A DNA stretch of 64,000 bases, from positions 3,005 to 67,004 of the forward strand of contig CAIMUX010000121.1 of NCBI GenBank assembly GCA_903844735.1. Reading direction: 5' to 3'. The notes under the pieces are model-generated. The model was not told where the DNA came from, ran no database searches, and saw only the letters and a list, made by a program, of their open reading frames with translations. The stretch comes from Candidatus Eiseniibacteriota bacterium (GTDB lineage: Bacteria; Eisenbacteria; RBG-16-71-46; CAIMUX01). The position numbers and the translations under genes are program-made. Below are positions 9,910 to 61,502 of this stretch, piece by piece. How positions within the stretch are numbered: the first letter of the stretch is position 1; each line of letters starts with the position of its first letter.

Positions 9910-11673
9910 TCATCCAAGCCGCTCGGACGGCCGCCGAAGGCCATGCACCCGAACCCGGCTGTGAAGATGCTGTCGGCTGATGCCCAGATCCTTCGCGGCG
10001 CGCGTGATATTCCAGTTGTGGCGGCGAAGCACCGTTTCCAGCATCTCCCGCTCGAACTGGCCCGAAGCCTCCTGGAGCGTCCCCTCCGACGACGGCGGAA
10101 CATCCTCCGGTGTGAGGTCGGAGAGCTGCATCCTAAGCTGCGCCTCGTCAACTTGCTTGCCATCGGGAACCAGGGCACAAGCCCCTTCGATAACGTACCG
10201 GAGTTGGCGGACATTCCCGGGCCACGAGTACGTGAGAAGTAACGTTCGCGCCCGATCGGTGAGGCCGTTGATGCGCCGGGGCGAGCGCCGGATCGCCTCC
10301 GCCAGGAAGTGATCCACGAGGAGCGGGAGGTCTTCGCGTCGATCACGCAGCGGAGGCAGCTCGAGACGGATGCCGGCCAAGCGGAAATACAGGTCTTCGC
10401 GGAACGACCGGTCCTTCACCATCGCCCGGACATCGGCATTCGTGGCGGAGACAACCCGCACATCGGCCCGGCGGGTCTCGCTTTCCCCCACCCGACGGAA
10501 TTCGCCGCTTTCCAGAAAGCGAAGCAGCTTCACCTGCATCTGGGGCGGCATGTCGCCTACCTCGTCGAGAAAGAAGGTGCCCCCGTCGGCCTGCTCCACC
10601 AGCCCCGGGTTGTCCTGCACTGCGCCGGTGAACGCCCCGCGGCGATGGCCGAAGACGAGGCTGTCGAGAAGCTCCGCGGGAAAGCCGGCGCAGTTGACAG
10701 GGACGAACGGTCCGCCCTTGCGCAGCCCCTCGGTGTGGAGCGCTCGTGCCACCAGATCCTTGCCGGTACCGCTCTCGCCGAGAAGCAGGACCGGGATGTC
10801 GGTGTCCTTCAGCAGCCGGATCCGATCAAAGAGCGTGGTCATCGCCGGGCTGCGACCGAGCATACGCGCGAAGCCGGTCCCGGCCTGCGCCTCCGCCCGC
10901 AGGGTCTCGTTCTCGCGGGTCAGCAATAGGTGCGCTTCCTCCAGCCGACGCAGCTCACGCGCGTTCATCAGGCAGACAGCAGCCTGCGAGGCAAACGCCT
11001 CCAGGAATGGGATCTCCTGTGGGGTGCTTCGCAGGCCGGGTACCGAGCTGTCGAGGTAGAGCACGCCGCGGGGCGCACCATGCTCGCGGAGCGGCACGCA
11101 CACGGCCGCGTAGGTGTCCAGGGCCCGAATGGAGCGCGCCTCACGCAGCTCGGGAAGAAAGGCCGTGTTCTCCACCGGGATGACGCGGTTCTCGCGCAGG
11201 CACGCGCGGGCCAACGTCTCGGAAACGGTCGAGGCCTCCGGCGCCAATACTTCCCGGGCCGCCCCCCGCGCCTGCACTACCCGAAGGTGACCATGGTCCT
11301 CCACCAGAAGAAGGCCGCGTTCCGCGCCGCTGAGCACGACCGCGCCGTCGAGAACCGCCTCCAACAGCCGGTCCGGGTCTAGGATGGAAGAGAGCTCGCG
11401 CGAGATTTCCAGCAGTCGCCAGAGCCCCTGGCGCTCTCTCTCCAAAGCGGCCGCGACCTCGGCCTCTTCGGCCCGCGCCTGGGCGAGAAGCCCTCGTTCT
11501 TGCGGAGAGACTCCGACGCGGCGCTGCAGGAGGGCCGCCGGGCCGGTCGGCGGCGACGCCATTTCCGGCGACGCGATCTTCGGCGGCGATGCGACTTCCG
11601 GCAAAGGACGAGGAACGGAGACCGGTGGCGGCGTCACGTTGTCGCTACTGCTCTCGAACTCATGGAATCCCAC
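9910..11673 (-). CDS. Sigma54-dependent transcriptional activator (GAF + AAA+ + Fis-type HTH)
   Basis: GAF region (AAVCVPL..GVLYLDS), Walker A GESGTGKD, GAFTGA, FFLDEVG, WPGNVRQL and HTH NITRAAKDLGISR. Confidence 0.94.
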   Translation of the reverse strand: MGFHEFESSSDNVTPPPVSVPRPLPEVASPPKIASPEMASPPTGPAALLQRRVGVSPQERGLLAQARAEEAEVAAALERERQGLWRLLEISRELSSILDPDRLLEAVLDGAVVLSGAERGLLLVEDHGHLRVVQARGAAREVLAPEASTVSETLARACLRENRVIPVENTAFLPELREARSIRALDTYAAVCVPLREHGAPRGVLYLDSSVPGLRSTPQEIPFLEAFASQAAVCLMNARELRRLEEAHLLLTRENETLRAEAQAGTGFARMLGRSPAMTTLFDRIRLLKDTDIPVLLLGESGTGKDLVARALHTEGLRKGGPFVPVNCAGFPAELLDSLVFGHRRGAFTGAVQDNPGLVEQADGGTFFLDEVGDMPPQMQVKLLRFLESGEFRRVGESETRRADVRVVSATNADVRAMVKDRSFREDLYFRLAGIRLELPPLRDRREDLPLLVDHFLAEAIRRSPRRINGLTDRARTLLLTYSWPGNVRQLRYVIEGACALVPDGKQVDEAQLRMQLSDLTPEDVPPSSEGTLQEASGQFEREMLETVLRRHNWNITRAAKDLGISRQHLHSRVRVHGLRRPSERLG

Positions 11674-16729: not shown

Positions 16730-19000
16730 TCACCGACCCTTCGCGTCCTCCAGCATGCCGGCCTCGACCACGGCGAAGGCCGTCATGTTCAAGATGTCAT
16801 TCATTTCTGACTGCGGCTGGAGCACGTGCACCGGTTTCGCCATCCCCTGGAGGATGGGTCCGATCTGCTCCGCTCCGCCCAGCCGCTGCACGAGTTTGTA
16901 AGCGGCGTTGGCCGCCTCAAGCACCGTGAAGATGAGGACATTCGCCGTCCCCCCCGCGAGCTTGCTGAAGGGAAACAGGCTGGAGAGGAGCCCGGGGACC
17001 ACGGCGGTATCGGCATGCACCGGCCCGTCGACGACCAAGTCCGGCTCTTCCTTCGCGAGGATGCGCAGCGCCTCCTCCACTTCCGCGATCCCCGGCCCAC
17101 GGGCGGTCCCGAAGTTGGAGTAAGAGATGAACGCCACCCGCGGGATGACGCCGAATTCACGCGCCGTCTGCGCCGTCTGCCGCGCGATCTCGGCCAGGGC
17201 CCGGCCATCCGGCCGGATGTTGACGGTTGTATCGGCGAAGAAGTACATCTGGTCACGTGTGAGCATGACGTGGACGCCGCTGACCCGGCTCGCCCCCGAC
17301 TTGAGTCCAACGATCTGCACGCAAGGACGGATCGTCTCGGGAAGTCTCTGGGCGATCCCGGCGATCATGCCATCGGCGTCTCCCAGCCGCACCATCATCG
17401 CACCGAATTCGTTCGCCGAACGCATGGCGATCCGCGCGCCATCCAGGGTCTCCCCCTTGCGCTGCCGCAGGCGGTAGTACTCCTGGACATAGGCATCGAA
17501 CCGCGGGTCGTGCTCCGGATCGATGATCACGGTGTCGCCGAGGTCGAGATCGAGCTCGCGGCACTCCTGTTCGATCACCTCACGGCGTCCGATGAGGATC
17601 GGATGGGCCATCTTCTCCTCGCGCACCATGGCGGTGGCGCGGAGGATGCGGCGGTTCTCCCCCTCGGGGTAGACGATCCGCTTGGGTGCGCTGCGCGCCT
17701 TGTGGATGATCGTGCGCATGACCCCGCGGGTCTTCCCGAGCAGACTCTCCAGCTGGTCGCGGTACTCGTCGAGATCAAGCGGCTTCTGCGCCACCCCGGT
17801 TTCCATGGCTGCGCGCGCCACGGCCAAGGCCTCCCAGACCAACACGCGCGAATCGAACGGCTTGGGGATCAGGTACTCGCGGCCGAAGTGGAAATATTGG
17901 TCGCCATACGCTTTGCTGACCGAGTCGGGCACATCCTGCTTGGCCAGCTCCGCGAGGGCGCGGGTGGCCGCCATCTTCATCGCTTCGTTGATGGTGGTGG
18001 CGCGGCAATCCAGCGCTCCGCGGAAGATGAAGGGGAAGCCGAGAACGTTGTTGACCTGGTTCGGGTAGTCGGACCGCCCGGTGGCCATGATGACGTCCTT
18101 GCGAGCGGCCACCGCATCCGGGTAGGTGATCTCAGGATCCGGGTTGGCCATCGCGAAAACGATCGGGTTCGCGTTCATGTGCTTCAACCACTCGGGCTTC
18201 AACAACCCCTTCCCGGAGAGGCCGAGGAAGACGTCGGCTCCCTTCAGCGCGTCCTCCAGCGTGCGCGCCGAGGTCTCGCGGGCGAACTGCTCCTTGTAGG
18301 GGTTCATCCCTTCGGTGCGGCCTTTGTAGATCACGCCTTTCGTGTCGAGCATGAGAATGTTCTCGAGCCGGATCCCGAGGCTGATGTAGTGCTTGGAGCA
18401 GGCAATGCCGGAGGCGCCGGCGCCGGAAACCACAACTCTCGTATCTGACGCTTTGCGCCCAGTCAGTTCGAGAGCGTTGATGAGCGCGGCCCCCGAAATG
18501 ATGGCCGTGCCGTGCTGGTCATCGTGGAAAACCGGGATCTTCATCGTGCGCTTCAGCTCTTCCTCAATGATGAAGCATTCGGGCGCTTTGATGTCCTCGA
18601 GATTGATCCCACCAAAGGTGGGTTCCAGAAGCTGGCAGGTGCGGATGATCTCCTGCGGGTCCAGGCTGTCGATCTCGATGTCGAAGACATCAATGTCGGC
18701 AAAGCGCTTGAAGAGGACCCCCTTCCCCTCCATCACCGGCTTGCCGGCCAGAGCGCCGAGGTTGCCTAGCCCCAGCACGGCGGTACCGTTGCTGATCACC
18801 GCTACGAGGTTTCCGCGCGCGGTGTACTCGAAGGCCAGGTCAGGGTCCTTCTCGATCTCGAGACACGGTTCCGCCACCCCCGGGGTGTAGGCCAGCGAGA
18901 GATCCCTCTGCGTCAAGCACGGCTTGGTCGAGTTCACCTCGATCTTTCCCTTACGCCCTCGGCTGTGGTACTCCAGTGCGTCGCTCAATTTCTTCGTCAT
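16730..19000 (-). CDS. maeB: NADP-dependent malic enzyme with C-terminal PTA-like domain (catalytic residues intact)
   Basis: AYTPGV, KPVMEGK, GINLEDI, FHDDQHGT, GAGASG and GRSDYPNQVNN; AGGAGG RBS. Confidence 0.97.
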   Translation of the reverse strand: MTKKLSDALEYHSRGRKGKIEVNSTKPCLTQRDLSLAYTPGVAEPCLEIEKDPDLAFEYTARGNLVAVISNGTAVLGLGNLGALAGKPVMEGKGVLFKRFADIDVFDIEIDSLDPQEIIRTCQLLEPTFGGINLEDIKAPECFIIEEELKRTMKIPVFHDDQHGTAIISGAALINALELTGRKASDTRVVVSGAGASGIACSKHYISLGIRLENILMLDTKGVIYKGRTEGMNPYKEQFARETSARTLEDALKGADVFLGLSGKGLLKPEWLKHMNANPIVFAMANPDPEITYPDAVAARKDVIMATGRSDYPNQVNNVLGFPFIFRGALDCRATTINEAMKMAATRALAELAKQDVPDSVSKAYGDQYFHFGREYLIPKPFDSRVLVWEALAVARAAMETGVAQKPLDLDEYRDQLESLLGKTRGVMRTIIHKARSAPKRIVYPEGENRRILRATAMVREEKMAHPILIGRREVIEQECRELDLDLGDTVIIDPEHDPRFDAYVQEYYRLRQRKGETLDGARIAMRSANEFGAMMVRLGDADGMIAGIAQRLPETIRPCVQIVGLKSGASRVSGVHVMLTRDQMYFFADTTVNIRPDGRALAEIARQTAQTAREFGVIPRVAFISYSNFGTARGPGIAEVEEALRILAKEEPDLVVDGPVHADTAVVPGLLSSLFPFSKLAGGTANVLIFTVLEAANAAYKLVQRLGGAEQIGPILQGMAKPVHVLQPQSEMNDILNMTAFAVVEAGMLEDAKGR

Positions 19001-20591: not shown

Positions 20592-21659
20592 TTGGATCCG
20601 GCGATGAACGGCGCGGCGAATCCGGACCGCCCGGACTACCAGGTGGCCCTCTGCTGTCCTGCCTGCGGGGAACGCTCGTTACAGCGGGTCATGAAGTCCA
20701 ACCTGCTCCTCCCGGTGCGGGTCCCGGGGCACCCGTTCTTGCGCGCCTACACCTGGTCTGACGGCAAGCCCAGAGAGTCACATCCGTTGCATTTCGGTGT
20801 CTGTTTCTGCCCGTGCTGCCACTACCCGGATATCGAGGCCGACTTTCGCGATGGAGCGGGCCGCACCCACGACATCAGCCGTACGCTACGACGGTTCTTC
20901 GTGGAGCAGTTGGTCGGATGGGGCCGGCCACTCGCCGACATTCTCGGAACCGGCATGGAGAGCATGGAAGACCCCGAGCGGACGACGCGTCTCCACCTCG
21001 CGGCCATCGCGACGCAACGTCTGATCTATCCCGAACTGTGGCGCCGCCGCGAGATCGGGCAGCTCTATCTTCGTCTGGCTTGGCTCTACCTAGACGAGAA
21101 GCACCTGCGCTGGGATCCGGATCACCCCACCGCACCGCCTACCTACGAGATCGAAGGACCGGGCTACGCACGGATGCAGGCAGTGCTCGCCCAGCTTGAA
21201 CCGATCCGCGCGGCGTGGCCCGAGATTCCCCTGGACGAAGAGTCGACCCGACGCGAGGTCCTCAAGTTCCACCAGGAGGCGTACACCCGGCACAGCGGCA
21301 CCCTCACGCCGGAAGAGAGCGTGGCCGATGAGCGTCTCCTGGCCGTTCTGTTCGGCTTGAACGGGGACCAGGAGATGGCGAAAGAAATGTTCGAGCGTGC
21401 CCTCGACTCCTGCATCCGGCTGCGCCAGGAAGCCACCCAGCAGCAGTCAGGGGCCTGGAACAGCGGCCTCAGCGCCACCGAGACCAAAGCGCTCGCGATC
21501 CGCATCCAACGTCTCAGCAAGAGCGCCGAGGGGATTAGGGATGAGATGAACACGGCATTCCCTCCCCCCAAGGCCCGGGTGTCGGCTCTCCCGCCTTCGC
21601 GCAGGAGCACCACCGCATCATCTCCCAAGAAAAGGCGGATCTTCGGCATCTTCGGCTAG
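20592..21659 (+). CDS. DUF2225-like protein (CxxC...CxxC zinc ribbon plus helical repeat region)
   Basis: CPACG ... HPLHFGVCFCPCCHY ... IGQLYLRLAWLY pattern; GGAGGAG RBS before TTG 20592. Confidence 0.7.
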   Translation: MDPAMNGAANPDRPDYQVALCCPACGERSLQRVMKSNLLLPVRVPGHPFLRAYTWSDGKPRESHPLHFGVCFCPCCHYPDIEADFRDGAGRTHDISRTLRRFFVEQLVGWGRPLADILGTGMESMEDPERTTRLHLAAIATQRLIYPELWRRREIGQLYLRLAWLYLDEKHLRWDPDHPTAPPTYEIEGPGYARMQAVLAQLEPIRAAWPEIPLDEESTRREVLKFHQEAYTRHSGTLTPEESVADERLLAVLFGLNGDQEMAKEMFERALDSCIRLRQEATQQQSGAWNSGLSATETKALAIRIQRLSKSAEGIRDEMNTAFPPPKARVSALPPSRRSTTASSPKKRRIFGIFG

Positions 21660-21681: not shown

Positions 21682-22377
21682 ATGACCCGAAATCGCCTGC
21701 TCCCCGCCCCGGTGGAAGAGATGCCGTGCGTGCTGGCGCCCGGCCGGCTCACGCCACCCCTCGACTGGCGCGCCATCTTCGGTCGCACCGGCGAGGTGGA
21801 GATCGAAATCGGCTGTGGCAAGGGACGTTATATCGTGGAGGCGGCCCGGCTCCGGCCCGGCTCCGATCTCGTGGGAGTCGAGCGGGCCGGGAAGTGGTTT
21901 CGCCGTGCCGTCCAGCGCGCGCATCGCTCCAGCCTTCCCAACCTCCGGCTCGTGCAGGCCGATGCGTTCGATTTCCTGGCCCGCTGGGTTCCGCCCGGTT
22001 CCGCCGCGGCGGTTCATGTGTATTTCCCCGACCCGTGGCCGAAGCAACGGCACGGCAAGCGGCGACTGCTCCAGTCGACTTTCTACCACCTTGCCGCCCG
22101 GGCGCTCTCGACGACCGGATGGCTGTACCTCGCCTCCGACGTAGAGCCATACTTTCAGACCGCCGTGGCGGAGATCGCGGCCCTGGGTCTTTTCGAGCCA
22201 CAGCCATGGCCGGAGGATGCACCGGATCGGATCCCCACCAATTTCGCCGTCAAGTACGCCAGGGAAGGGCGCCCGCTCTTCTATGCGCGCTACTCGATGC
22301 TTACTGGGAGGCTGCGCGCGGAGATGGAGCCCAGCCCTTTCCCCGTGATAGTCTCCCTGGCCGGGGAGGAAACATGA
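21682..22377 (+). CDS. trmB: tRNA (guanine-N7)-methyltransferase
   Basis: EIGCGKG, VGVE, YFPDPWPKQRHGKRRL, LASD and TNFAVKY. Confidence 0.93.
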   Translation: MTRNRLLPAPVEEMPCVLAPGRLTPPLDWRAIFGRTGEVEIEIGCGKGRYIVEAARLRPGSDLVGVERAGKWFRRAVQRAHRSSLPNLRLVQADAFDFLARWVPPGSAAAVHVYFPDPWPKQRHGKRRLLQSTFYHLAARALSTTGWLYLASDVEPYFQTAVAEIAALGLFEPQPWPEDAPDRIPTNFAVKYAREGRPLFYARYSMLTGRLRAEMEPSPFPVIVSLAGEET

Positions 22378-22829
22378 CGCAGCGAACCGAATGGCACGAC
22401 TACTTCATGCGGATCGCCGAAGAAGTGGCGACCAGGGGTACCTGTGACCGACGCCGGGTGGGAGCGCTCATCGTGCGGGACCGGATGATCCTTTCGACCG
22501 GCTACAACGGGAGTGTCCGCGGGATGCCGCACTGTGACGAGGCCGGCCACATGATGGAAGACGACCACTGCGTGGCGACGATTCATGCCGAGGCGAACGC
22601 CATCCTCCAGGCCGCGCGCAACGGCGTGCGGATAGAGGGGGCGGAGATCTACACCACCGCCAGCCCGTGCTGGAACTGTTTCAAGATGATCACCAATGCC
22701 GGGATTACGCGGATCTATTACGGCGCCTTCTACCGGGAGCGCCGGATTTTCGAGGTCGCCGAACGGCTGGGAATCGAGCTGATCGACCTTTCCGCCGGCC
22801 GGGACGACCTACGGGAGGAAAGAGACTGA
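22374..22829 (+). CDS. dCMP deaminase (ComEB-like)
   Basis: WHDYFM, TGYNG, HAEANA and SPCWNC zinc motif; ATG 22374 has GGAGG and overlaps the trmB stop. Confidence 0.93.
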   Translation: MTQRTEWHDYFMRIAEEVATRGTCDRRRVGALIVRDRMILSTGYNGSVRGMPHCDEAGHMMEDDHCVATIHAEANAILQAARNGVRIEGAEIYTTASPCWNCFKMITNAGITRIYYGAFYRERRIFEVAERLGIELIDLSAGRDDLREERD

Positions 22830-23865: not shown

Positions 23866-24873
23866 CTACGTCCGGAGCAACTTGTCGACTTCCCGGCAGG
23901 TCTTCTGTACTGCATCCGCCGATAGCGCCAGACCGTTCTTTTCCTGTGCGGTCAGGTCCACCTCGATGATCCGCTCGATCCCGTTCTTGCCGATGATCGC
24001 GGGCACGCCGACGAAGAGATCCCGCACGCCGTACTCCCCCTGCAGCAGGCAGCACACGGCCAGGATCTTCTTCTTGTCATAGATGATCGCCTCGGCCATC
24101 TCGAGCGCGCTCAGCGCCGGCGAGACGAAGGCGGAGCCGAAGCCGAGGAGTCCGACCACCTCGCCGCCCGCCTTGCGCGTCCGGTCTTCGATCGCGTCCA
24201 GCCGGTCGGGTGCGATGAACGACTCGACGGGCATGCCCGCGATGCGGCAACAACTGCGCACCGGAACCATGGTGTCACCGTGCCCGCCCAGCACCATCGC
24301 CTCGACGTTTTCCACGCTGACCCCGGCCTCCTGCGCCACGAAGTACCGATAGCGAGCGGAGTCGAGCACCCCCGCCATGCCCAGCAGGCGACTCTTCGGC
24401 ACACCGAGTCTCTTGTACAAGGTATACACGATGGCGTCGAGGGGATTGGCAATCGATATGATCATCGCCCTGGGACAGTGCTTCCGGATGGCGTCGGCCA
24501 CCTCCCCGGTGACCTTGAGATTGATCGCCAGCAACTCCTCGCGCGAAGGGAACGTCCCGTCGGCACGCGCCTTGCGCGGCACCCCGGCGGTGTTGATGAC
24601 CATGTCGCACCCGTCGAGAATGTCGTAGTCCCGGCTTGCCTGGAGCACGACATCGCTGCCGATGAGCGGTGCCCCTTCGGCGATGTCCAGAGCCTTGCCC
24701 TGGGCGACCGATTGCTTGCGCACCACGGCCTGCTTCTCGGAAGGATCGTTCGGGTTAACGAAGGGAGCGGGGTCGGTCACGGCCACGACCCTGGCGAGGC
24801 GCCGGCGGGCCAGTTCCTGCACGAGAACGCCGCCGATGAATCCGCCGCCGATGACGCCGATCTTGTCCAACAC
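23866..24873 (-). CDS. mdh: Malate dehydrogenase (LDH-like MDH)
   Basis: IGGGFIG, GKALD, TAGVPRK (Arg specificity residue), NPLD, GVLDSAR and LGGHGD; GTG 24873 follows AAAGGAG. Confidence 0.93.
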   Translation of the reverse strand: MLDKIGVIGGGFIGGVLVQELARRRLARVVAVTDPAPFVNPNDPSEKQAVVRKQSVAQGKALDIAEGAPLIGSDVVLQASRDYDILDGCDMVINTAGVPRKARADGTFPSREELLAINLKVTGEVADAIRKHCPRAMIISIANPLDAIVYTLYKRLGVPKSRLLGMAGVLDSARYRYFVAQEAGVSVENVEAMVLGGHGDTMVPVRSCCRIAGMPVESFIAPDRLDAIEDRTRKAGGEVVGLLGFGSAFVSPALSALEMAEAIIYDKKKILAVCCLLQGEYGVRDLFVGVPAIIGKNGIERIIEVDLTAQEKNGLALSADAVQKTCREVDKLLRT

Positions 24874-25142
24874 GGGTCGGTCTCCTTTCATGGATTTCGG
24901 CCGGGGCCACGCCATCGAGAGCGTTCCGGCCGGCCGGTGTCTGCATGCCGATGCGCGTCAGACGACGAGGAAAGCGCCGCCGCATCATCGAGAAGCATCA
25001 CCGGAAGGCCGTGATTGTCAAGCTCTCTTGCGGCGATCTGAGAGTCGGAGCAATCCAGCTTCGGTCAGACGCACGCCCACCGAGATCGCCACGAAGATGG
25101 AGTCGCGGCCGGGAAGAGAGTATTCTTTGGCGGGTAACACGA

Positions 25143-28100
25143 ATGGATGAAGAGACACCCAAATCGCCGACGCCGACGACGGGTCTGGATCGCCCCCTCG
25201 AAGCCACGGGCCTCGAGGGGCCCTCCGAGACCACGCGCCTCGATGGGCCCTCCGAACGCACGGACTTCGCCCCCCCCCCGCAATACACCGGGACCAATTT
25301 CGGGGCACTGGAGCCCGCGCTTCGGGACCTGGAATCCCAGTTCACGCTGGTCATGGGCCGTCCGGAGCGCGTCGTGGAGGCGTGCCGAATCCTCTCCGTC
25401 CAACTCGAGGCGGCGGACGACCCGGACCTCGCGGATCGTTGCCACGCTCGGGTAGTCACTCAACTGCACGTGCGGCAGGGCGGCGTCGCGCAAGCGCTGA
25501 TCCCCTTCCTGGAGGAGCGAGCGCGGCGCGGACCGAACCCTCGCCGCATTATCCTGAGCCTCCTCGTAGCCCGCGATGATGTTGCGCGGCGCCACGGGCT
25601 TCGACTGGCGTGCGAGATGATCGAGTCGGGGCGGATCGCAGCCGACGTCGCGGCGATCCGGGGCCTGGCGTTCGCGATCGAGGAAGACGAGGCTGCGGGG
25701 AGGGATGTCGCGCTTCTGGAGCGGGTCAGAGATGCCTTGCGGGGCATCAATCTCGCCCCCACGTCTGGGGAGCTGGTGGACCACGGGCCGGTTGCGCGTG
25801 GTGCGGAACCCCTCTCCCCCGCTTCCGCTGGGCTGCACGACCGGCTTGAGGCGCTTCTCCTGCAGGCGCCGGACCCGAGAGTGCGATTCCTGGCCGCCCG
25901 GCTCCTCGATCTCCCGGGAACCCCCGTGCCCGCTGACCGGCTGGCGCGCCTCTTCGGCGCCGAGACGGCTGCCGTGCTCGCCCCGTATCTGGCGTTCACG
26001 CGGGCCACGCACCGCAACATGGTGGAGCTGACCCCCGAATCACGAGTTTCCCCCGCGCTCCTTTCCTCGATGCAGGACGCGGAGCGCGCCCTCGGCCGGC
26101 CCCTGCTCGGCGAAGTGCTGGGCGAACTCGGCTGGGACCGCCTCGCCTGGGGCATCTCGTGCCGACGCCTCGTGGGCTTGAGCCTGGACGGAGGGTTCCC
26201 GCTCGCCGTCACGCCGGCCGAGGCGATGCTCCTCGACTCGTGCGGGCCCGCGCGGCGCACATGGGACCGTTTCCTCGTCGTGGCCCATGGTGGGTCGGCG
26301 TCGGGTGAGAACGACAACGACATGGAAGCGACGGCCGTCCAGCGGTTTCGCAAGTATAACATCCTCCACGCGGAATTGCTGGGCGAAATCCTCGAGGTCG
26401 CGCCACTCACCCCCGCCAAGGTGCGCCGGATCGTCGAACGAATGGAACAGGTGGTCAGCCACTTCGCCGTTCTGTTCAGAGAGCATTCCGAGGATGCGAC
26501 GCGGGTCGAAGCCTGCTTCGCCGCCCTCCGCGATCGGGCCATCCGGCTGATGGCGGAGGCGCCCGATGACCAGCCGCTGCAGGCCGAGGTGGCCCGCGTC
26601 GTGCAGATGTTCGAGGATCCGCGATCACTTGACGATGTGCGCACGCTGCACGGCCTCAAGCGCTACCTGCACCAGCAGGGACTGCGTCTCGCGTTTCGCG
26701 CTTTCCGTTCCGGTCGCGCAACCAACCGGACCGTCGACGTAGCCATCGCCAACGCCAGTCGCGTCCTCCAGGTGGTTCGGCGGATTCGCTACATCGACTT
26801 CGAACCGGACCCGGGAGCCGAGCCGGGAGATCTCCCCTACCCGGTCGCCCTCATCGCTGAGGTACTGGGCCGCCGCCTCGTCCACGGAAAGATCGAGTCG
26901 CCCGACTTCGAGATCCTGGCCTACGGGAACGAAATCCAGATCTTCATCGGGTTCCGTAATCATCCGGTTTTCCTGCGCCTCGATCTCTCGCCGCCCCAGC
27001 GCGGCGGCATGATCGACCTTGAATACTACGGCGTGAGCCAGTACGAGCTCGACCGCCACCCCGATCTTTCGCTTCAGTGGGTGCAGCGGGTGTTCCGCCG
27101 CCTCGACTTTGACGTCCGCGTCGAACAGTTCCGTCTGCACATCCGCTACGACAAGGAGCGGGCGCTCGACTTGGGCGACCTCCTCGCGCATGTGCGCATC
27201 CTCGGTTACCTCTTGCCCCACTTGATGGACCTCGACTGGGTGATCGCCGTGCTCGACTATCCAGAGACGGCCAAGGCGCAGGTCGCCGACGCGTGGGCCG
27301 ACCTCATTCCTGACTGGGGCTGGCTCCCGATCGCGGAACTTCTGACCGCGGACCGACGGCACATCCTGCGCGGAATCGCCGCGGACCCGGCGGGAGAACG
27401 CGAGGTCCGCTGGGATGGACACGGGGAGTATCGCGACCGATTCATTGGCGTGCCCGATCGGGCGGTATGGGGTCGGATCCGTGCGCAACTCGAAGCGGGC
27501 GGCCTGGCCCGGTTTGTCCCCTGGCCGGAGTTGACCGAACTTCCGGTCGCGCAAATTCCGCTGGAGAAGTTTCTCTTCACGCCCCTCCGCGAGGCCGTAC
27601 ACCTCGGAGGCCTGCGAGAGACTCATGCGGGGCCCATGCCGACGGCTCCCGACGGGACACCCTCACCGCACGAGGCCGAGGCGTTAGCACAGATCCTTCT
27701 CCGCGGCGGGGCGCCCCTCGATGAAGCGGCGAGGATCGCCACCGTCGTCGGATCGATCGAGCGACATCTTCGCTTCGTCACGAGCGGCAGCATCCAGGGG
27801 TACCCGGTCCAGCGGGCCACGCTTGTTTTGCGCGGCGAGCGGGTGGAATTGTCGGTCCTGAGGGACGCCGACGGCATCGCGCGACTCGCGCTCGCTGACG
27901 ACTGCCCGATGCAGAGCTGGACCGGCACCCGCGGTCGATCGCATCTCGGCGTCGGACCCCGACTCGATTGCCGCGAGCTGATTCGGCGGCTGCGTCGCGA
28001 CAACTACGTGGCCGTCGCCTACGAGTCGCCAATCGAGCAGGACGGCCGACGGGCGGCGCTCACTGCCGTCTTCGCCGCACCGAACGCGCTGGCCCCGCCC

Positions 28101-30572
28101 GGCCACTCCCCCGGCGACCTAGTCATCGAGGGGATCGTAGCCTCGTCCGGCAGGGCGGCCGGTTTTGCACGCCTTGGCACCGAAGGGCGCTCGCTGGATG
28201 AGCTGGACGGTGCCATCCTCTTCGCTCCTGCGTTCCGGCCGGACGACACGCCGCTTCTTCGCCGGTCTGCCGCGATTGTCTCGACCGGTGGAGGGATTCT
28301 GAGCCACGCCGGGCTGATAGCACTCGAACTGCACAAGCCCGCGCTCGTCATCTCCGGTCGTTGGAGGAAGGATCCCACCGATGGGGGCACGGCCTCCTTC
28401 GAGGGGACGCCGGATGGCAGCAGCGCGCTCGCCTACCGGCACTTCGACTTTCGGGAGGACGAGCGGGCGATCGGTCCGTACGCTGTGCTCCTGCGGCGCG
28501 ACCTGCACGAGCGTGAGCAGATTCTTCGCGAGGGAGATCTTGTCGTGGTGGACGCCGAAGTCGGAACCCTCACCGTTCTCGGGCAGGATCGCGACGCCCT
28601 CGCTCTCCAGCGAGAGCTGCGCCAAATCGACACGGTCGCCGGGGAGCTGGGACGGGAAGAGGCCGGACCCCGGCTCCTTCTCCTGCGCGGGCGGTGGCAC
28701 CGGGCTGTGCACCAATTGAAGAAGCTCCTTTCCCGCATCGACCGACCCGCGCTAGCGCGCCACGCCGCGCGGGAGCTGCTCTTCGCGCGCAGCGCCCCGT
28801 CGTCGATGCCCGGCCGCGACGACGTCGGAGGGCTGCTCCACGCGCTCTTCGCGAATGCGGCGGTAGGCGAGGCCGCCCGGCTGGCGGCGCGGCGACAGCA
28901 CGTCGAACTGGCCCGGCGGCACGGGGCCTATGTCCGCGAGGCGCTGAGGATCATCCCGATCACGGACAGCGTGCCGGAAATTCTTCACCTCCGCCTGGGT
29001 GTGATCCAGGTGCGCAGGCGCCTCGACGCGCTCGCCCGACTGCTGAACTCGGTCGGCATGGCCACGGCCTATGCCGGACAGCATCCGGACCTCGACTTCT
29101 GCGCGCGGCGGCGCCTCGATGAACTGCGGGAACAGCTTCGCCGTGAGTTGGCGTCGACCTCGGACAAGGAAGGAACATCGGACGCGGCAAGTGCCACCAA
29201 CGATGGCGGGCCGTCCTGGATCCGGCGGCATCGTCTCGAACGTCTGGAGTCGCTAGAACGCGTGTTGCCCGGAGCGGATGATACGGCCGTCACTTCCGCG
29301 GAGAGCGCGATTCCCCGGGAGAGCGCGGCCTCCTACGAGGGCGCGGCCGGCGCGGATGGACTGAGAGATCGGCAAACCGATCGACCGGAGAGAGCCAGGA
29401 GCCTCGCAGCGCAGCGTCGCGACTTGGCACGCCGTCTCCCCGGGCGCCTGATCCTCGACTCCCGGGACGGCGGACGCGAGCTCGCTCCCCTCATCGGTAG
29501 CAAGGGCGCCAACCTCGGCGAGATCGCACGGATCCTCGGACCCGATCGGGTCCCTCCGTGGTTTGCCACTACCGACGCGGCGTTTCAGGAGCTCATGGCC
29601 GGTCCACCGGGTCGCGCGGCCGCGGCGGTGGGTATTGATGCGGCTTGCCCGTCGCTGGCAGCGGCCATCGACGAAATCCTGGGGCGACCGGACAGCCGCG
29701 CAGCACGGAAGGCAGCGGCCATCCGGCAGCTCTGGGAAGGAGTGCCGCTTTCCCCGCGCCTCGAGGCCGAGATCGACGCGGCGTACCACGCCCTGGGAGA
29801 GGGGTGCTTCGTCGCCATCCGCTCTTCCGCCTTCGAGGAAGACACAGAGGGCAGCTCGTGGGCCGGACAGTTCGACACTTTCCTTTTCATCCAGAGCGAA
29901 GAGGCGGTGCGCGATCACGTCAAACTGGCGATGGCGAGCCTGTGGACCGAGCGGGCCCTCGTTCACCGCGAGGAGGACGGCGACGTGACGACGCGGCGAG
30001 GCGACGGCGATGTCGTATCGAGCGAAGAGGCCGGCGACCCGACGATGGGGCGAGGTGGCGGCGTCATCGTCCAGAGAATCGTGGACGCACGGGTGGCCGG
30101 CGTGCTGCACACCCTGTCCGCCACCGCCGGCCAGGCCCGCGAGATGGTCATCAACGTCGGCCTCGGTCTCGGCGAGGGGGTCGTCTCGGGGACGGTCGAG
30201 GTGGACCACATCGTCGTCTCGCGCGAAACCTCCCTCGAAGAGGATCCCCTCCGCGTTCACTACCTCGTGGGCGACAAGAGCAGCCGGATCGTCTTCGACC
30301 GGCTCGCCGGCTCCGGGACGCGCCGCGAGGAGACCCTCTACCACCAGCGCTTGCGTGCGGCCCTCGAGTACAGCGATCTCGGAGATCTCGTCCGCGCCGC
30401 CGCGAGCTTAGAGCGCGTCTACGGGTTCCCCCTCGATATCGAGTTCGCCTTCGAGGAGGACTCCCTCTACATTCTTCAGGTGCGACCCATCGTCGCCTTT
30501 CAGAACGCGCTGCGCGCGACGCTCGAACAGGCCCCGCTGACCCCGGTCGTCGCGCACGGCGGAAAGGATTAG
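25143..30572 (+). CDS. Giant PEP-synthase/pyruvate,water-dikinase-like protein: unknown N-terminal ~1000 aa, phospho-His swivel domain, C-terminal ATP-grasp (PPDK_N)
   Basis: GGGILSHAGLIALELHKPA (His at ~28305) precedes GSKGANLGE, VAIRSSA.EED...AGQFDTFL, GLGEGVVSG and DIEFAF...LQVRPI (~29490-30490). Start uncertain; the ORF is open from 24945. Confidence 0.85.
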   Translation: MDEETPKSPTPTTGLDRPLEATGLEGPSETTRLDGPSERTDFAPPPQYTGTNFGALEPALRDLESQFTLVMGRPERVVEACRILSVQLEAADDPDLADRCHARVVTQLHVRQGGVAQALIPFLEERARRGPNPRRIILSLLVARDDVARRHGLRLACEMIESGRIAADVAAIRGLAFAIEEDEAAGRDVALLERVRDALRGINLAPTSGELVDHGPVARGAEPLSPASAGLHDRLEALLLQAPDPRVRFLAARLLDLPGTPVPADRLARLFGAETAAVLAPYLAFTRATHRNMVELTPESRVSPALLSSMQDAERALGRPLLGEVLGELGWDRLAWGISCRRLVGLSLDGGFPLAVTPAEAMLLDSCGPARRTWDRFLVVAHGGSASGENDNDMEATAVQRFRKYNILHAELLGEILEVAPLTPAKVRRIVERMEQVVSHFAVLFREHSEDATRVEACFAALRDRAIRLMAEAPDDQPLQAEVARVVQMFEDPRSLDDVRTLHGLKRYLHQQGLRLAFRAFRSGRATNRTVDVAIANASRVLQVVRRIRYIDFEPDPGAEPGDLPYPVALIAEVLGRRLVHGKIESPDFEILAYGNEIQIFIGFRNHPVFLRLDLSPPQRGGMIDLEYYGVSQYELDRHPDLSLQWVQRVFRRLDFDVRVEQFRLHIRYDKERALDLGDLLAHVRILGYLLPHLMDLDWVIAVLDYPETAKAQVADAWADLIPDWGWLPIAELLTADRRHILRGIAADPAGEREVRWDGHGEYRDRFIGVPDRAVWGRIRAQLEAGGLARFVPWPELTELPVAQIPLEKFLFTPLREAVHLGGLRETHAGPMPTAPDGTPSPHEAEALAQILLRGGAPLDEAARIATVVGSIERHLRFVTSGSIQGYPVQRATLVLRGERVELSVLRDADGIARLALADDCPMQSWTGTRGRSHLGVGPRLDCRELIRRLRRDNYVAVAYESPIEQDGRRAALTAVFAAPNALAPPGHSPGDLVIEGIVASSGRAAGFARLGTEGRSLDELDGAILFAPAFRPDDTPLLRRSAAIVSTGGGILSHAGLIALELHKPALVISGRWRKDPTDGGTASFEGTPDGSSALAYRHFDFREDERAIGPYAVLLRRDLHEREQILREGDLVVVDAEVGTLTVLGQDRDALALQRELRQIDTVAGELGREEAGPRLLLLRGRWHRAVHQLKKLLSRIDRPALARHAARELLFARSAPSSMPGRDDVGGLLHALFANAAVGEAARLAARRQHVELARRHGAYVREALRIIPITDSVPEILHLRLGVIQVRRRLDALARLLNSVGMATAYAGQHPDLDFCARRRLDELREQLRRELASTSDKEGTSDAASATNDGGPSWIRRHRLERLESLERVLPGADDTAVTSAESAIPRESAASYEGAAGADGLRDRQTDRPERARSLAAQRRDLARRLPGRLILDSRDGGRELAPLIGSKGANLGEIARILGPDRVPPWFATTDAAFQELMAGPPGRAAAAVGIDAACPSLAAAIDEILGRPDSRAARKAAAIRQLWEGVPLSPRLEAEIDAAYHALGEGCFVAIRSSAFEEDTEGSSWAGQFDTFLFIQSEEAVRDHVKLAMASLWTERALVHREEDGDVTTRRGDGDVVSSEEAGDPTMGRGGGVIVQRIVDARVAGVLHTLSATAGQAREMVINVGLGLGEGVVSGTVEVDHIVVSRETSLEEDPLRVHYLVGDKSSRIVFDRLAGSGTRREETLYHQRLRAALEYSDLGDLVRAAASLERVYGFPLDIEFAFEEDSLYILQVRPIVAFQNALRATLEQAPLTPVVAHGGKD
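25176..25256. repeat. Degenerate 27-bp in-frame tandem repeat, 3 units
   Basis: Encodes TTGLDRPLE / ATGLEGPSE / TTRLDGPSE. Confidence 0.7.
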
Positions 30573-30578
30573 AACGGC

Positions 30579-32837
30579 ATGATCCGACGCGAAGAAAGCC
30601 TCCGGTACCACGAGGGAGACCGGCCGGGCAAGATCGAAGTCAAGATGAGCAAGCCCTGCCTGAGCCCGCGGGAGATGCGCCTGGCCTACCTTCCCGGTGT
30701 CGCATGGCCCGTGCGGGAGATCGCCGACAACCCGGCCAACGTCTGGCGCTACACCGCGCGCGGCAACCTCGTCGGAATGGTGAGCAACGGGAGCGCAGTC
30801 CCCGGGCTCGGTGACGTGGGCCCCGCCGCCGCCAAGCCGATCCAGGAGGGGATCGCACTGCTCTTCAAGCGGTTCGCCGACATCGACGTCTTCGATCTGG
30901 AGCTCGACGCGCGGGACCCGGAACGGATCGTCGACTTGGTGCGCACGCTGGAGCCGACCTTCGGCGCGATTTGCATCAAGGACATCCGCGCGCCCGAGGG
31001 GCTCGAGATTTATGATCGGCTGCGGGAGACGATGTCGATCCCTGTCTTCCACGAGAATTTGTACAGCACCGCGATCGTGGCCATGGCGGCTCTGATCAAC
31101 GCCCTCGACCTCGCGGACAAGGAGATCTCGTCGGTGCGGGTTGTCATCTGCGGCGCCGGCACCGTCGGTCTCGGGTGCGCGCGCCTGCTCACGGCGCTGG
31201 GCCACCCCCCCGAGAACCTGCTCCTCTACGACATCCGGGGGCTCGTCTCCCCCGACCGGGAAGACCTGCACAGATACCAGAGGGACTTCGCCCGCGACGA
31301 CGCGGCGCGCACCTTGGAGCAGGGGCTCAGGGGCGCCGATGTGTTCCTCGGCGCCTCCACGGGCGGCGTTCTGACCCCCGAGATGATCCGCTCGATGAGC
31401 CGCTTTCCGATCGTCTTCGGCATGGCCACGCCGGCCCCTGAGATCGCCTACCAGGAGGCGCGCAGCACGCGGCGCGATGCCATCGTGGGCACGAGTTTCG
31501 GACAGGACCCGAATGCCATCGTCGACCTCCTGAGCTTCCCCTATGTTTTCCGCGGCGCCCTCGACGTGCAGGCCAAGGGAATCTCCGAACGGATGATGCT
31601 GGCCGCGGCGCGCAGCCTCGCCGAGCTGGCGCGCGAGGAGGTCCCGGAGGAGGTGAGCCGCGCCTACGGCGACGAATCGTTCACGTTCGGCCCGGACTAC
31701 CTCCTGCCCATGCCGATCGATCCGCGCATCCTCGTGCGGCAGTCGGCCGCCGTCGCGCGGCAGGCGATGGAGGAAGGCCTCGCCGGTCGCTCCGTGCCGG
31801 TGGACGGGTACGAGGAGTCGCTCGCGGTGCGCCTCGGAACCACCCGCGAGTTGGTTCGCCGGCTCATCACCAAGGCGCGTTCCGTCAACCCGCGGATCGT
31901 CCTGCCCGAAGGAACGAGCGAGAAGATCCTCCGCGCCTGCGCCCTTCTCATCGACGAGGGAATCGCCAACCCGATCTTGGTCGGCACCGAAGAGGACGTG
32001 CACCGTGCGGCCGAACGCCTCGGGATCGACCTCGGCGGCGTCGCCATCGTCGACCCGGCCCACAGCCCGCACTTCGACGCCTACGCGGCGGAGTACCTCA
32101 CCCTCTGCGGTCGGCGCGGTGTGACTCCCGACCTCGCACGGACCCGGATGACCCACGCCCGGCACTTCGCGGCACTGATGCTACACAAAGGCGACGCCGA
32201 CATGATGATCTGCGGCGCCACCGACCACTACGCCGAGTCGATGCGAACCGTCCTGGAGATTATCGGCCCCGCCCCCGGCGTGCGGCGGATCTCCAGCTTG
32301 CACATGGTCCACCGTCCCAAGGAGGTCTACTTCCTCGCGGACTGCTCCGTGAACATCGAGCCGGATGCCGAGGATCTCGCCGAGATCGCGCTGCTTGCCG
32401 CGCGGACCGTGCGCGCGCTTGGGATCGAGCCACGAGTGGCGATGTTGTCGTTCTCCAACTTTGGAAGCGTCGATCACCCGCTGGCGCGCAAGGTGCGGAC
32501 AGCCACGCGGATCGCGCGCGAGCGGAACCCCGGGCTTGTTATCGAGGGGGAACTCCAGCTTGAGACGGCGCTCGACGCGAAGATCCGGCGGCGGTACTTT
32601 CCGTTTTCGGATCTCACGCAGAATGCGAACGTTCTTGTTTTCCCCGACTTGCAGTCGGGGAATCTCTCGTTGCACTTGTTGCAACAGATCGGCGAGGGGA
32701 TCGCGGTGGGTCCGATCTTGATGGGGACGCGGCTGCCGGTGCACGTGATCCAGCAGGGATCACCGGTGGATGATGTGGTGAATCTGGCGGCGGTGGGGGC
32801 GTTGCAGGTGGCGGGGGCGCTGACTGGAGGGATGTAG
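30579..32837 (+). CDS. MaeB-like malic enzyme/PTA fusion paralogue with degenerate active site
   Basis: Full-length and colinear with 16730-19000, but MEGK is QEGI, NLED is CIKD, HDDQHGT is HENLYST and GRSDYPNQVNN is [11 protein letters not shown]. Confidence 0.9.
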
Positions 32838-53669: not shown

Positions 53670-53754
<85 letters not shown>

Positions 53755-57955: not shown

Positions 57956-58019
57956 AAACGCAAGAACCCCGGCCGCGCACCGGCCGGGGCCCGATCGTTA
58001 CGCCGTCTCCGAGACCGGC

Positions 58020-58958
58020 TCAGAACCGAAAGTCGACCGACACACGATGAACCGCCGGCATGGCGCCCATGTCGGTATACGCGTAGTCCACCCGGGCCTC
58101 GGAGTTCAGCGCGGCGGCGAGCTTGAAGCCGAGCCCGGCGCTGAATGTCTCCAGATCAGAGTTGAACTGGTACCCGCTTCGCACGAAGAAGAACTCCTTG
58201 AAGCCGTATTCCATCCCCCAGCTCGCCCGTTCGCTGTTGTCCGGCGGGTGACTGAAGTCACCGGCCATGAGAACCATCTGGCTGCCGGACTCGTAAAGGT
58301 TCATCGACATCCCGACCCTAAAGACGGTCGGCATCTTCACCTGACTCTCGATGAATGTCATGTCGCTACCGATATTTTGGATCGCCATTCCGATGCGGAG
58401 ACTGCGGTATCCTGTGTTGTACAGCGTGCCGAAGTCGAAAATGACGGCGCTTCCTGTGTATGATGCGAGCGAGGACTGCAGGTAACTCGCACCGATCCCG
58501 GCCGAGAACTTGTCGGTGAGCGAGCGGCCATACGTGACACCCAACGCCATGTCCCCCGAGTCAGACGATCGGCCCTCGCCCTCGGGACGAAAGACAGTAC
58601 GGACCTGCTGCTCGTCCATGTAGAGGCTGCGGGCGCTGATCCCGATCGTCCCCGGGAGAAACCGGGTGTGGAAAAGATAGGTGGCCTGCGCGTAACCGAT
58701 ATCCGCCAGCCAGGTCGTGTGATTGATGCTGAGTACGCCCTTCTGGATGCGGGCGATTCCCGCGGGGTTCCAATAGACAGCGGTCGCGTCATCGGCCACG
58801 GAGACAAACGAACTCCCCATGGCAACCGCCCGGGCGCCGATCCCGATCTTGAGGACCTGTCCTCCGATCGTACCGACCTTGGCGAACTGGCGCGCGCTGT
58901 GCGCCAAGCCCGGGCTGATCAAGGCCAATGCCACCATCAGGATCAAGATGCGCTTCAC
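58020..58958 (-). CDS. PorV/PorQ-family (FadL-like) outer-membrane protein
   Basis: Signal peptide; LKIGIGARAVAMG...DDATAVYWNPAG; ends VDYAY...HRVSVDFRF. Confidence 0.88.
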   Translation of the reverse strand: MKRILILMVALALISPGLAHSARQFAKVGTIGGQVLKIGIGARAVAMGSSFVSVADDATAVYWNPAGIARIQKGVLSINHTTWLADIGYAQATYLFHTRFLPGTIGISARSLYMDEQQVRTVFRPEGEGRSSDSGDMALGVTYGRSLTDKFSAGIGASYLQSSLASYTGSAVIFDFGTLYNTGYRSLRIGMAIQNIGSDMTFIESQVKMPTVFRVGMSMNLYESGSQMVLMAGDFSHPPDNSERASWGMEYGFKEFFFVRSGYQFNSDLETFSAGLGFKLAAALNSEARVDYAYTDMGAMPAVHRVSVDFRF

Positions 58959-59001
58959 CCGACTCCTCCTTCGCTCCTGCCGCCCAGAGACCTTCTCGGC
59001 C

Positions 59002-61488: not shown

Positions 61489-61502
61489 GAGTGCTCCCCG
61501 CT

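Follow-up and report, generated by a model that had tools for sequence, protein, structure and literature searches.

A giant dikinase-like protein and a catalytically disabled MaeB paralogue encoded by a linked gene pair in at least 13 bacterial phyla

We analysed a stretch of 64,000 nucleotides (nt) from the genome of a Candidatus Eiseniibacteriota bacterium (assembly GCA_903844735.1, contig CAIMUX010000121.1, positions 3,005 to 67,004 of the forward strand), referred to here as the window, in which a gene encoding a giant dikinase-like protein lies directly upstream of a gene encoding a paralogue of the hybrid malic enzyme MaeB. The giant gene (25143-30572, + strand) encodes 1809 amino acids (aa), and the paralogue gene, taken from the list of open reading frames (ORFs; 30579-32837, + strand), encodes 752 aa. 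The TAG stop codon of the first (30570-30572) and the ATG of the second (30579) are separated by a 6-nt spacer, aacggc (30573-30578, + strand). The open frame of the giant gene extends back to 24945 (ORF 24945-30572, + strand, 1875 aa). We use the ATG at 25143; it gives the length of the database protein P0005, to which the sequence is 100% identical. Alignments with homologues begin at about residue 56, and the first 58 or so residues are unconserved.

The pair is divergent from the malate dehydrogenase gene mdh (23866-24915, - strand; NCBIfam malate dehydrogenase, 332.6 bits with a cut-off of 283), at a distance of 227 nt. An intact hybrid MaeB of 756 aa (16730-19000, - strand), recognized by Pfam, NCBIfam and alignment and carrying the motifs MEGK, LEDI and HDDQHG, is encoded 11.6 kilobases (kb) upstream of the paralogue and is the sole other MaeB-like gene in the genome. 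An earlier note on this DNA, made from the sequence alone, had described the 6-nt spacing between a dikinase gene of about 1800 aa and a MaeB paralogue, the divergent mdh and the intact maeB some 12 kb upstream, and each of these observations holds.

The two genes are a linked unit well outside the window. Searching one genome for each GTDB species, we identified at least 216 stretches coding for relatives of the giant protein and retrieved the best 80 together with 10-kb flanks. A gene of the same type as the window paralogue (P0002) lies directly downstream on the same strand in 76 of the 80 loci, that is, in all that have room for it; the other four end within 160 nt of the giant gene. These downstream paralogues are 46-80% identical to P0002 and are always closer to it than to true MaeB. 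The 72 loci that carry a phylum label are spread across 13 named phyla, and carriers include Acidobacteriota, Thermodesulfobacteriota, Ignavibacteriota, Bacteroidota, Myxococcota, Gemmatimonadota, Planctomycetota and several candidate phyla. Genus labels on some loci from metagenome-assembled genomes are Anaeromyxobacter, Syntrophobacter and Ignavibacterium.

Spacing was measured in 70 loci, leaving out the four without a partner and six whose matches to the giant protein were spread over two or more frames or ran across a stop codon. In 47 of them the genes overlap, 40 by ATGA and seven by 1, 8 or 14 nt, whereas the window has its 6-nt spacer; 20 further pairs are spaced by 2-49 nt and three are further apart. 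Among 151 genomes from the phylum of the window, 14 have both genes and 137 have neither, with the two genes on different contigs of a fragmented assembly in one case (G020). Pairwise identities of the giant core and of the paralogue are correlated (Pearson 0.72 over 1275 non-independent pairs). We found no third conserved gene in the 10-kb flanks. The pairing is far beyond chance, and strict adjacency with overlapping start and stop codons across phyla is the pattern expected of subunits that are made together.

Two kinds of irregular locus were seen. In one Eisenbacteria-labelled locus a transporter gene (MFS_1, 211 bits; L051:14366-15592) lies between the pair, the sole insertion in the 70 loci. 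In two genomes of the phylum sample (G141:C2:354434-356700 and G097:C1:2155943-2158167) the paralogue is split over several frames, with one to six internal stops per match, all of them TGA. Those assemblies consist of 7 and 4 contigs, respectively, and the broken genes likely result from assembly indels, although pseudogenes are possible.

In one metatranscriptome library (X13), two parts of the giant gene and one part of the paralogue are matched by short contigs at 99-100% identity. None spans the gene junction and DNA carry-over is possible, hence this signal is weak.

The giant dikinase-like protein

Pfam recognizes two domains only in the giant protein: the PEP-utilizers mobile domain (residues 1022-1127 in the 1809-aa numbering, 1088-1193 of the 1875-aa ORF; 39.4 bits) and PPDK_N (residues 1449-1786, or 1515-1852 of the ORF; 188.6 bits). 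The PEP-utilizers_C TIM barrel (PF02896) is absent by the same search. The order of the domains, with the swivelling histidine domain ahead of the ATP-grasp domain, is the reverse of that in phosphoenolpyruvate (PEP) synthase (PEPS) and pyruvate, phosphate dikinase (PPDK). All NCBIfam equivalog cut-offs for PEPS and PPDK are missed (NF005057, 208.3 bits against 598; TIGR01418, 201.6 against 739.75), and the PEP synthase models match over the ATP-grasp part only.

The phosphohistidine swivel domain occupies residues 985-1149 (28095-28589, + strand), as judged from Pfam, motif alignment and Foldseek, which matches it to the phosphoryl-carrier domain of PPDK (2fm4) with an E-value of 3.2e-3. The catalytic histidine is His1055 (codon 28305-28307), which lies within an invariant STGGGxLSHxG and aligns with the TSH of the PEP synthase motif GGRTSHAAIV of solved structures; it is invariant in 16 of 16 and in 55 of 55 aligned homologues. 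A long helical linker domain follows (residues 1150-1431; 28590-29435, + strand), as placed by the AlphaFold2 model (m05848ca079d0), with helices at model positions 166-390 and a variable, low-confidence end (predicted local distance difference test, pLDDT, below 50 at 396-424). No Pfam family matched these roughly 280 residues. The C-terminal ATP-grasp nucleotide-binding domain (PPDK_N; residues 1432-1796; 29436-30530, + strand) is placed by Pfam and Foldseek, and its Lys, Arg-Ser-Ser, Glu-Asp, Asp-x-Glu and Gln-x-Arg-Pro columns are invariant; like His1055, the ATP-grasp motifs hold in 16 of 16 and in 55 of 55 aligned sequences.

The model of residues 985-1809 is confident (pLDDT 86.1; predicted template modelling score, pTM, 0.89) and consists of the swivel domain with an insertion, the helical domain, a disordered linker and the ATP-grasp domain. 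The best Foldseek matches of this C-terminal half are PEPS (2ols, E 2.9e-17), rifampin phosphotransferase (RPH; 5hv1, E 3.3e-17) and HpeI (9goj, E 3.6e-16), followed by PPDK (E about 1e-5); the matches to RPH and HpeI span the ATP-grasp part only, with about 350 aligned columns. Given the invariant motifs and a confident fold that matches these enzymes, the dikinase machinery looks intact.

The genome also has a canonical PPDK (G000:C138), in which PPDK_N and PEP-utilizers_C are both present, as well as an enzyme-I-like gene; a genome-wide search for PF02896 finds only two loci, neither of which is the giant gene. PEP formation is thus already covered. Because the giant protein has no PEP-utilizers_C and the genome has its own PPDK, an ordinary pyruvate-to-PEP role is excluded by domain content and is also unneeded, in agreement with the earlier note, which had supposed a different, unknown substrate. 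The genome has three more open frames with PPDK_N, of 1220, 610 and 1014 aa (G000:C96:5707-6843, G000:C96:2906-4027 and G000:C30:21253-22356). Two of them are close together on one contig and could be other non-standard or two-component dikinases.

Source annotations name the homologues 'PEP/pyruvate-binding domain-containing protein', 'phosphohistidine swiveling domain-containing protein', 'pyruvate, water dikinase' or 'hypothetical protein'. Full-length homologues are 1438-1942 aa long among the best 120 of 372 matches.

The N-terminal 930 aa form a separate module, modelled from 55 sequences with a pLDDT of 87.0 and a pTM of 0.86. According to the model, it begins with a helical repeat of HEAT/ARM type (residues 59-328, model 1-270; 25317-26126, + strand), the least conserved of its structured parts. 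This is followed by a small beta/alpha element with a four-helix bundle (residues 337-523, model 279-465; 26151-26711, + strand) that contains an invariant HGLKRYLHQ, and by an alpha/beta core (residues 528-758, model 470-700; 26724-27416, + strand). A domain of helices and a beta-sheet completes the module (residues 773-985, with model strands at 766-864; 27459-28097, + strand; conservation 0.35-0.64). The alpha/beta core, with a conservation of 0.65-0.83, is the most conserved part of the whole giant protein. Its invariant histidine, arginine, lysine, aspartate and glutamate residues lie in YGNE, HPxFLRxD, PPxxGGMxDL, RYDKE and DxDW, and we regard it as a candidate acceptor or catalytic site.

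A Pfam search with residues 59-985 at E-values up to 10 returned only HEAT_2, at 0.07. A profile search of the PDB with the module yielded nothing usable, and neither did the ESM Atlas with the whole module or with the core. Foldseek found no match to the N-terminal model in the PDB at E<=1e-3, and VIA-align gave only helical-repeat and four-helix-bundle matches in the range common for helical proteins; these searches, which barely probed the alpha/beta core, assign it no fold. There was likewise no match between the model and RPH, with the alpha/beta domains again barely probed; for this reason we make no claim of a new fold. The module profile has 293 matches at E<=1e-3 among 1.84 billion representative proteins, and the 150 listed matches are proteins of about 1400-1940 aa or shorter pieces. 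Five proteins of 900-1050 aa (P0126, P0131, P0136, P0166 and P0174) contain the whole module and then end; they may be fragments from contig ends or stand-alone forms that lack the dikinase half.

The MaeB paralogue

The paralogue has the malic, Malic_M and PTA_PTB domains of a hybrid MaeB (Pfam) and is 47% identical to the intact MaeB of the genome; its best PDB matches are the Bdellovibrio and E. coli MaeB structures. Pfam and alignments place a malic-enzyme-like half at residues 1-415 (30579-31823, + strand), and Pfam a PTA-like half at residues 426-740 (31854-32798, + strand; PTA_PTB, 344.5 bits).

In the alignment with the intact MaeB, the paralogue has QEGI for MEGK, IKDI for LEDI, HENLYS for HDDQHG and NAIVD for NQVNN, motifs that presumably hold the diagnostic residues of the malic enzyme of PDB entry 1QR6. 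The window paralogue accordingly carries Ile92 in place of the catalytic lysine, Lys134 in place of a metal-binding glutamate, Asn160 in place of a metal-binding aspartate and Asp316 in place of the asparagine, and it retains Tyr37 and the Rossmann motif GAGTVG. The residues described as diagnostic in 1QR6 are Y112, K183, E255, D256 and D279 (PMC13147460). The contexts of the motifs were verified in two intact large malic enzymes that are encoded beside the pair in other genomes (L020 and L038), which carry YTPTVG, PIGKL, WEDF and FNDDIQGT. In a control set of true MaeBs, EGK, LED[IL] and DDQ are kept in 16 of 16.

The same substitutions recur throughout the clade. The general-base lysine is found in none of 77 paralogues, where the position is Met (31), Ile (27), Val (7), Leu (4), Ala (4), Thr (3) or Phe (1). 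The first metal ligand has changed from Glu to Lys in 70 of 77 and the third from Asp to Asn in 73 of 77, with the middle aspartate retained in 74; the asparagine of NQVNN has become Asp in 72 of 77. The catalytic tyrosine is retained in 75 of 77 and GxGxxG in 72 of 76. The earlier note had remarked on missing catalytic residues in the window paralogue, and the loss proves to be clade-wide. Judged by these residues, the paralogue cannot be a normal malic enzyme or decarboxylate malate, and the pattern of changes in the pocket (Lys134, Glu159, Asn160, Tyr/Ser at 162-163 and Asp316) reads as a fixed new set, not as decay.

The malic-enzyme half has a mean column identity of 78% in 51 sequences from many phyla. 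In nine genomes that encode both proteins, the paralogues are more alike than the true enzymes in 35 of 36 genome pairs (64% identity against 58%, with the qualification that the true enzymes may not all be orthologous), which indicates that the paralogue evolves more slowly, or under stronger constraint, than true MaeB. In a maximum-likelihood tree from a quick search, rooted at the midpoint only, one branch with a Shimodaira-Hasegawa-like approximate likelihood-ratio test (SH-aLRT) value of 100 splits 69 paralogues from 19 true MaeBs. The tree is consistent with a single origin of the paralogues.

The PTA-like half can be aligned to its counterpart in Bdellovibrio MaeB. The arginine of acetyl-CoA site 1 in that protein (SLRQRKG, mutated there) is a cysteine here (TLCGRRG), and the lysine of the site is an arginine. 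The acetyl-CoA sites of MaeB are described as conserved only within MaeB clades (PMC12704298), and binding of acyl-CoA is for that reason unreadable from the sequence of the paralogue.

Neighbouring genes and genome context

To survey the neighbours of the pair, we searched the largest ORF in the 2.5 kb to either side (56 upstream, 55 downstream) with Pfam and added targeted tblastn. The neighbours are mostly unrelated, and the one recurring theme is enzymes of the C4/C3 node. In 11 of 81 loci, the window included, a gene for an enzyme of malate, oxaloacetate or fumarate lies beside the pair. Oxaloacetate decarboxylase alpha or beta subunits (OadA or OAD-beta) are encoded upstream on the same strand in two loci from Acidobacteriota (L027, L043) and downstream in three from Ignavibacteriota (L039, L040, L081). 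In two loci (L020:725-2503 and L038:1491-3218), an intact large malic enzyme of the SfcA type (576-593 aa) is encoded on the same strand about 30 nt ahead of the giant gene, which makes a row of three genes encoding the malic enzyme, the giant dikinase and the dead MaeB. A class I fumarase is found beside the pair in L058 and a true MaeB is convergent behind it in L005. In addition, L010 has a DASS-family anion transporter downstream and L044 a 2-oxoacid dehydrogenase E1 beside the pair.

Among the 80 related loci, mdh and MaeB are found beside the pair only in the closest relative of the window (L003). The divergent mdh and nearby maeB are a local context and not a conserved part of the module. 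The link to the malate/oxaloacetate/pyruvate node, which the earlier note had proposed in the form of a possible regulatory module at the malate/pyruvate/PEP node, is backed to some extent by the neighbours that recur in other lineages. A true hybrid MaeB is encoded in 13 of the 14 pair-carrying genomes of the phylum sample and, among the 137 genomes that lack the pair, in 23, including G015, which is flagged as unpublished. Of ten pair-carrying genomes from other phyla, nine encode it too, two of these as split genes. Such an enzyme is thus usual, though not obligatory, in genomes with the pair, and the link of the pair to the C4/C3 node is suggestive.

The further neighbours in the window are housekeeping genes, encoding ClpP, an ATPase of the Mrp/NUBPL type, a deaminase, Omp85, MutS and a SPOR protein. 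In the mdh product, residues 18-179 (162 residues) align to the Ldh_1_N model of 141 positions, which indicates that some 20 residues are inserted within the NAD-binding domain; an N-terminal extension of 17 residues precedes the GxGxxG region. A 355-aa ORF without a Pfam family (20592-21659, + strand) is followed by a gene for a protein with a cytidine/deoxycytidylate deaminase domain and an N-terminal extension of about 220 residues (21726-22829, + strand). The G+C content is about 0.66 in the window and drops to 0.60-0.61 at 58001-64000, where the sign of the GC skew flips in the last 2 kb.

An Rfam scan of the window gave a tRNA (53673-53754) as its sole match, with none near the pair, and a search for upstream signals found no sigma-70-like promoters. 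Matches to the sigma-54 -24/-12 pattern are at chance level (58, with 50.9 expected), and none falls in 24916-25142. Genes for sigma-54 activators with GAF domains lie directly upstream of the pair in two loci, both of them Syntrophobacter-labelled (L013:7770-9488, L054:7811-9424), and a similar gene is found in the window at 9910-11673 (- strand), 13 kb from the pair. PADLOC models of anti-phage defence returned 0 families for either protein.

Possible functions and related systems

We propose that the pair is a two-subunit dikinase distinct from PEP synthase, that the paralogue is its ligand-binding subunit, and that it acts at the malate/oxaloacetate/pyruvate node; we put the probability of this reading at roughly 0.45. 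It starts from the domain make-up, the motifs, the loss of catalytic residues, the linkage, the single origin, the purifying selection and the C4/C3 neighbours described above, and from these we infer a complex, autophosphorylation, and the place and kind of the acceptor. ATP would be bound in the C-terminal ATP-grasp domain of the giant subunit, which would then pyrophosphorylate or phosphorylate His1055 of the swivel domain, and the swivel domain would deliver the phosphate to an acceptor site. Since the TIM barrel for PEP and pyruvate is missing, that site should belong to the conserved core of the N-terminal module or to the partner, or else be formed where they meet. The paralogue would bind a C4 or C3 acid or a nucleotide ligand and would either present the acceptor or gate the transfer.

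Several points weigh against this proposal. In 70 of 81 loci there is no C4/C3-node gene beside the pair, and the 11 that have one represent only about six or seven lineages, so that the signal from neighbours is only moderate. A hybrid MaeB was not found in two pair-carrying genomes, G124 (at E<=1e-100) and G154 (locus L031, Phycisphaerae, 'chromosome: 1'; at E<=1e-60). The N-terminal core has invariant residues of its own, so the giant protein could be self-sufficient and the paralogue a regulator only. Phosphoryl transfer normally requires a divalent metal, and as the paralogue has lost two of the three metal ligands its pocket is disfavoured as the site of transfer. Binding, autophosphorylation and acceptor are moreover all conjectured from indirect evidence. 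Finally, a natural fusion of the two genes was considered and rejected. The candidate ORFs in L073 (9515-16747, 2411 aa) and P0258 (2410 aa) carry garbled stretches that resemble frameshifts, and the candidate in L082 is an open off-frame in very GC-rich DNA.

L073 and P0258 are of Krumholzibacteria type and 78% identical to each other; they may reflect a recurrent long-read error or a real fusion of that lineage. A complex prediction for residues 393-977 of the giant protein with the malic-enzyme half of the paralogue (1000 residues) gave an ipSAE of 0.00 in both runs, made without controls, and is evidence neither way.

The rival that survives best, to which we give a distinctly lower chance than to the two-subunit dikinase, is that the paralogue is purely a sensor, which comes nearest to the idea of the earlier note. 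The giant protein would then be a complete dikinase with the acceptor site in its own N-terminal core, where many charged residues are invariant, and the paralogue would report levels of NADP(H), acyl-CoA or C4 acids and switch the dikinase. The paralogue keeps the entire architecture of malic enzyme plus PTA domain and, in 72 of 76 cases, GxGxxG, and there is precedent for dead paralogues that regulate active partners, such as the trypanosome AdoMetDC prozyme. The PTA domain of hybrid MaeB has also been described as an allosteric acetyl-CoA module and not an enzyme (PMC12704298). However, a fixed new set of pocket residues goes beyond loss, and the malic-enzyme half is unusually conserved, at 78% column identity. 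The Bdellovibrio site-1 arginine is moreover a cysteine here, and as the acetyl-CoA sites are clade-specific the sequence does not tell whether acyl-CoA is bound.

A bolder version of the two-subunit proposal, which we consider unlikely, is that the rebuilt malic-enzyme pocket is itself the phosphoryl-acceptor site and replaces the TIM barrel, and that the complex makes PEP or another phosphorylated C3 or C4 acid by a new route. Malate, oxaloacetate and the enolpyruvate intermediate are all accommodated in the ancestral pocket; with the proton-donating lysine gone and a lysine in the place of the metal, the phosphohistidine could capture, as a phosphate ester, an enolate or a different C3/C4 hydroxy or oxo acid. 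If this were true, it would represent a previously unseen class of enzyme at the PEP-pyruvate-oxaloacetate node in at least 13 phyla of mostly uncultured bacteria, and ATP would drive a new pathway to PEP or to a phosphorylated C4 acid that is itself new.

It is less probable still that the giant protein is a protein kinase, which would pass the phosphate from its phosphohistidine to a residue of the paralogue or of a true malic enzyme or MaeB and so alter the flux between malate and pyruvate. Its N-terminal HEAT/ARM-like repeat would serve as a platform for protein binding, and the paralogue offers new clade-wide Tyr, Ser and His residues (Tyr/Ser in HENLYS; His550/Tyr551). True hybrid MaeB is enriched in genomes with the pair (13 of 14 against 23 of 137, and nine of ten in other phyla) and an intact malic enzyme is encoded immediately upstream in L020 and L038. 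That enrichment is overstated, however, because related genomes are not independent, and G124 and G154 have the pair with no hybrid MaeB found. We know of no dikinase of the swivelling-histidine family that phosphorylates a protein.

The giant protein could also be a bacterial counterpart of glucan, water dikinase (GWD) that acts on a storage or envelope polymer, with the paralogue as an accessory subunit. We think this quite improbable, even though the two are similar in size and share the order of a large N-terminal region, a histidine domain and a C-terminal ATP-binding domain. The N-terminal 930 aa contain no carbohydrate-binding module (CBM) or other Pfam family, and genes of glycogen or glucan metabolism are not recurrent among the 111 neighbours surveyed, which include one trehalose-phosphate synthase and a few glycosidases. 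A polymer dikinase would also leave the obligatory malic-enzyme paralogue unexplained.

That the genes simply encode co-transcribed ordinary enzymes, a long PEP synthase and a divergent active malic enzyme that together convert malate to pyruvate and PEP, agrees with the name 'pyruvate, water dikinase' given to some homologues and with the match of the paralogue to the NADP-malic-enzyme model PRK12861 (688 bits), yet it is highly improbable in view of the missing PEP-utilizers_C domain and widely missed equivalog cut-offs, the absence of the catalytic lysine in 77 of 77 paralogues with two metal ligands replaced, the canonical PPDK and intact MaeB already in the genome, and a linkage in 76 of 76 loci with gene overlap that would be unexpected for two independent enzymes.

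A literature search, with subscription journals and supplements outside its scope, turned up neither the pair nor the giant family, nor any hybrid malic enzyme with disabled catalysis, in line with the remark in the earlier note that such a pair appeared to be undescribed. The swivelling-histidine dikinase machinery and the hybrid malic enzymes are known; the novelty lies in the architecture, in the N-terminal module and in the obligatory pairing. The PEP-pyruvate-oxaloacetate-malate node is among the best-studied metabolic junctions of bacteria, and the pair adds a two-gene module of 2,560 residues that is tied to it by ancestry and by neighbours. It also extends the swivelling-histidine dikinases by a new architecture, whose 930-aa module is without detectable relatives, and it is a clear bacterial case in which a metabolic enzyme has turned into a subunit, conserved and either non-catalytic or newly functional, of another enzyme to which it is unrelated. 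Annotations and metabolic models now count these genes as a PEP synthase and an NADP-malic enzyme, which the present analysis offers to correct.

Known systems resemble the pair in part. PEP synthase and PPDK share with the giant protein the ATP-grasp domain and a swivel domain with a T/S-H motif, and they provide its best sequence and fold matches. However, the domain order of the giant protein is permuted, with the ATP-grasp domain at the C terminus, the TIM barrel is absent, and scores are far below the cut-offs. Phenylphosphate synthase is a small-molecule dikinase with an acceptor domain other than a TIM barrel. In rifampin phosphotransferase and in HpeHI, which is described as a two-component small-molecule dikinase, the ATP-grasp and swivelling histidine domains have been put to use on a different acceptor, and in some of these enzymes they are divided among subunits (PMC12167813). 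Those enzymes have acceptor domains of the rifampin-binding type, whereas here there is an apparently unrelated 930-aa module and a partner derived from malic enzyme and PTA.

The closest likeness in layout is to GWD1 and PWD of plants and algae, compared here by description. Potato StGWD1 is described as consisting of two CBMs, a central domain, a histidine domain and an ATP-binding domain (PMC13553574). Like these enzymes, as far as they are described there, the giant protein is a very large single chain that has its phosphohistidine domain ahead of a C-terminal PPDK_N, lacks the PEP/pyruvate TIM barrel and begins with a long N-terminal region, which in GWD targets the substrate. It differs in being bacterial, in having no CBM45, CBM20 or recognized carbohydrate module, in the 280-aa helical domain between the histidine and ATP domains, and in its obligatory MaeB-derived partner gene.

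The paralogue, in turn, has the same three Pfam domains and the same length as hybrid MaeB, with 47% identity to the MaeB of its own genome. It differs in the clade-wide replacement of the lysine and two of the three metal ligands, in forming a separate clade and in always being coupled to the giant gene. As a concept only, the AdoMetDC prozyme is comparable, being a disabled paralogue that is kept under selection as a partner subunit. However, the prozyme pairs with its own active homologue, while the MaeB paralogue is paired with an unrelated dikinase.

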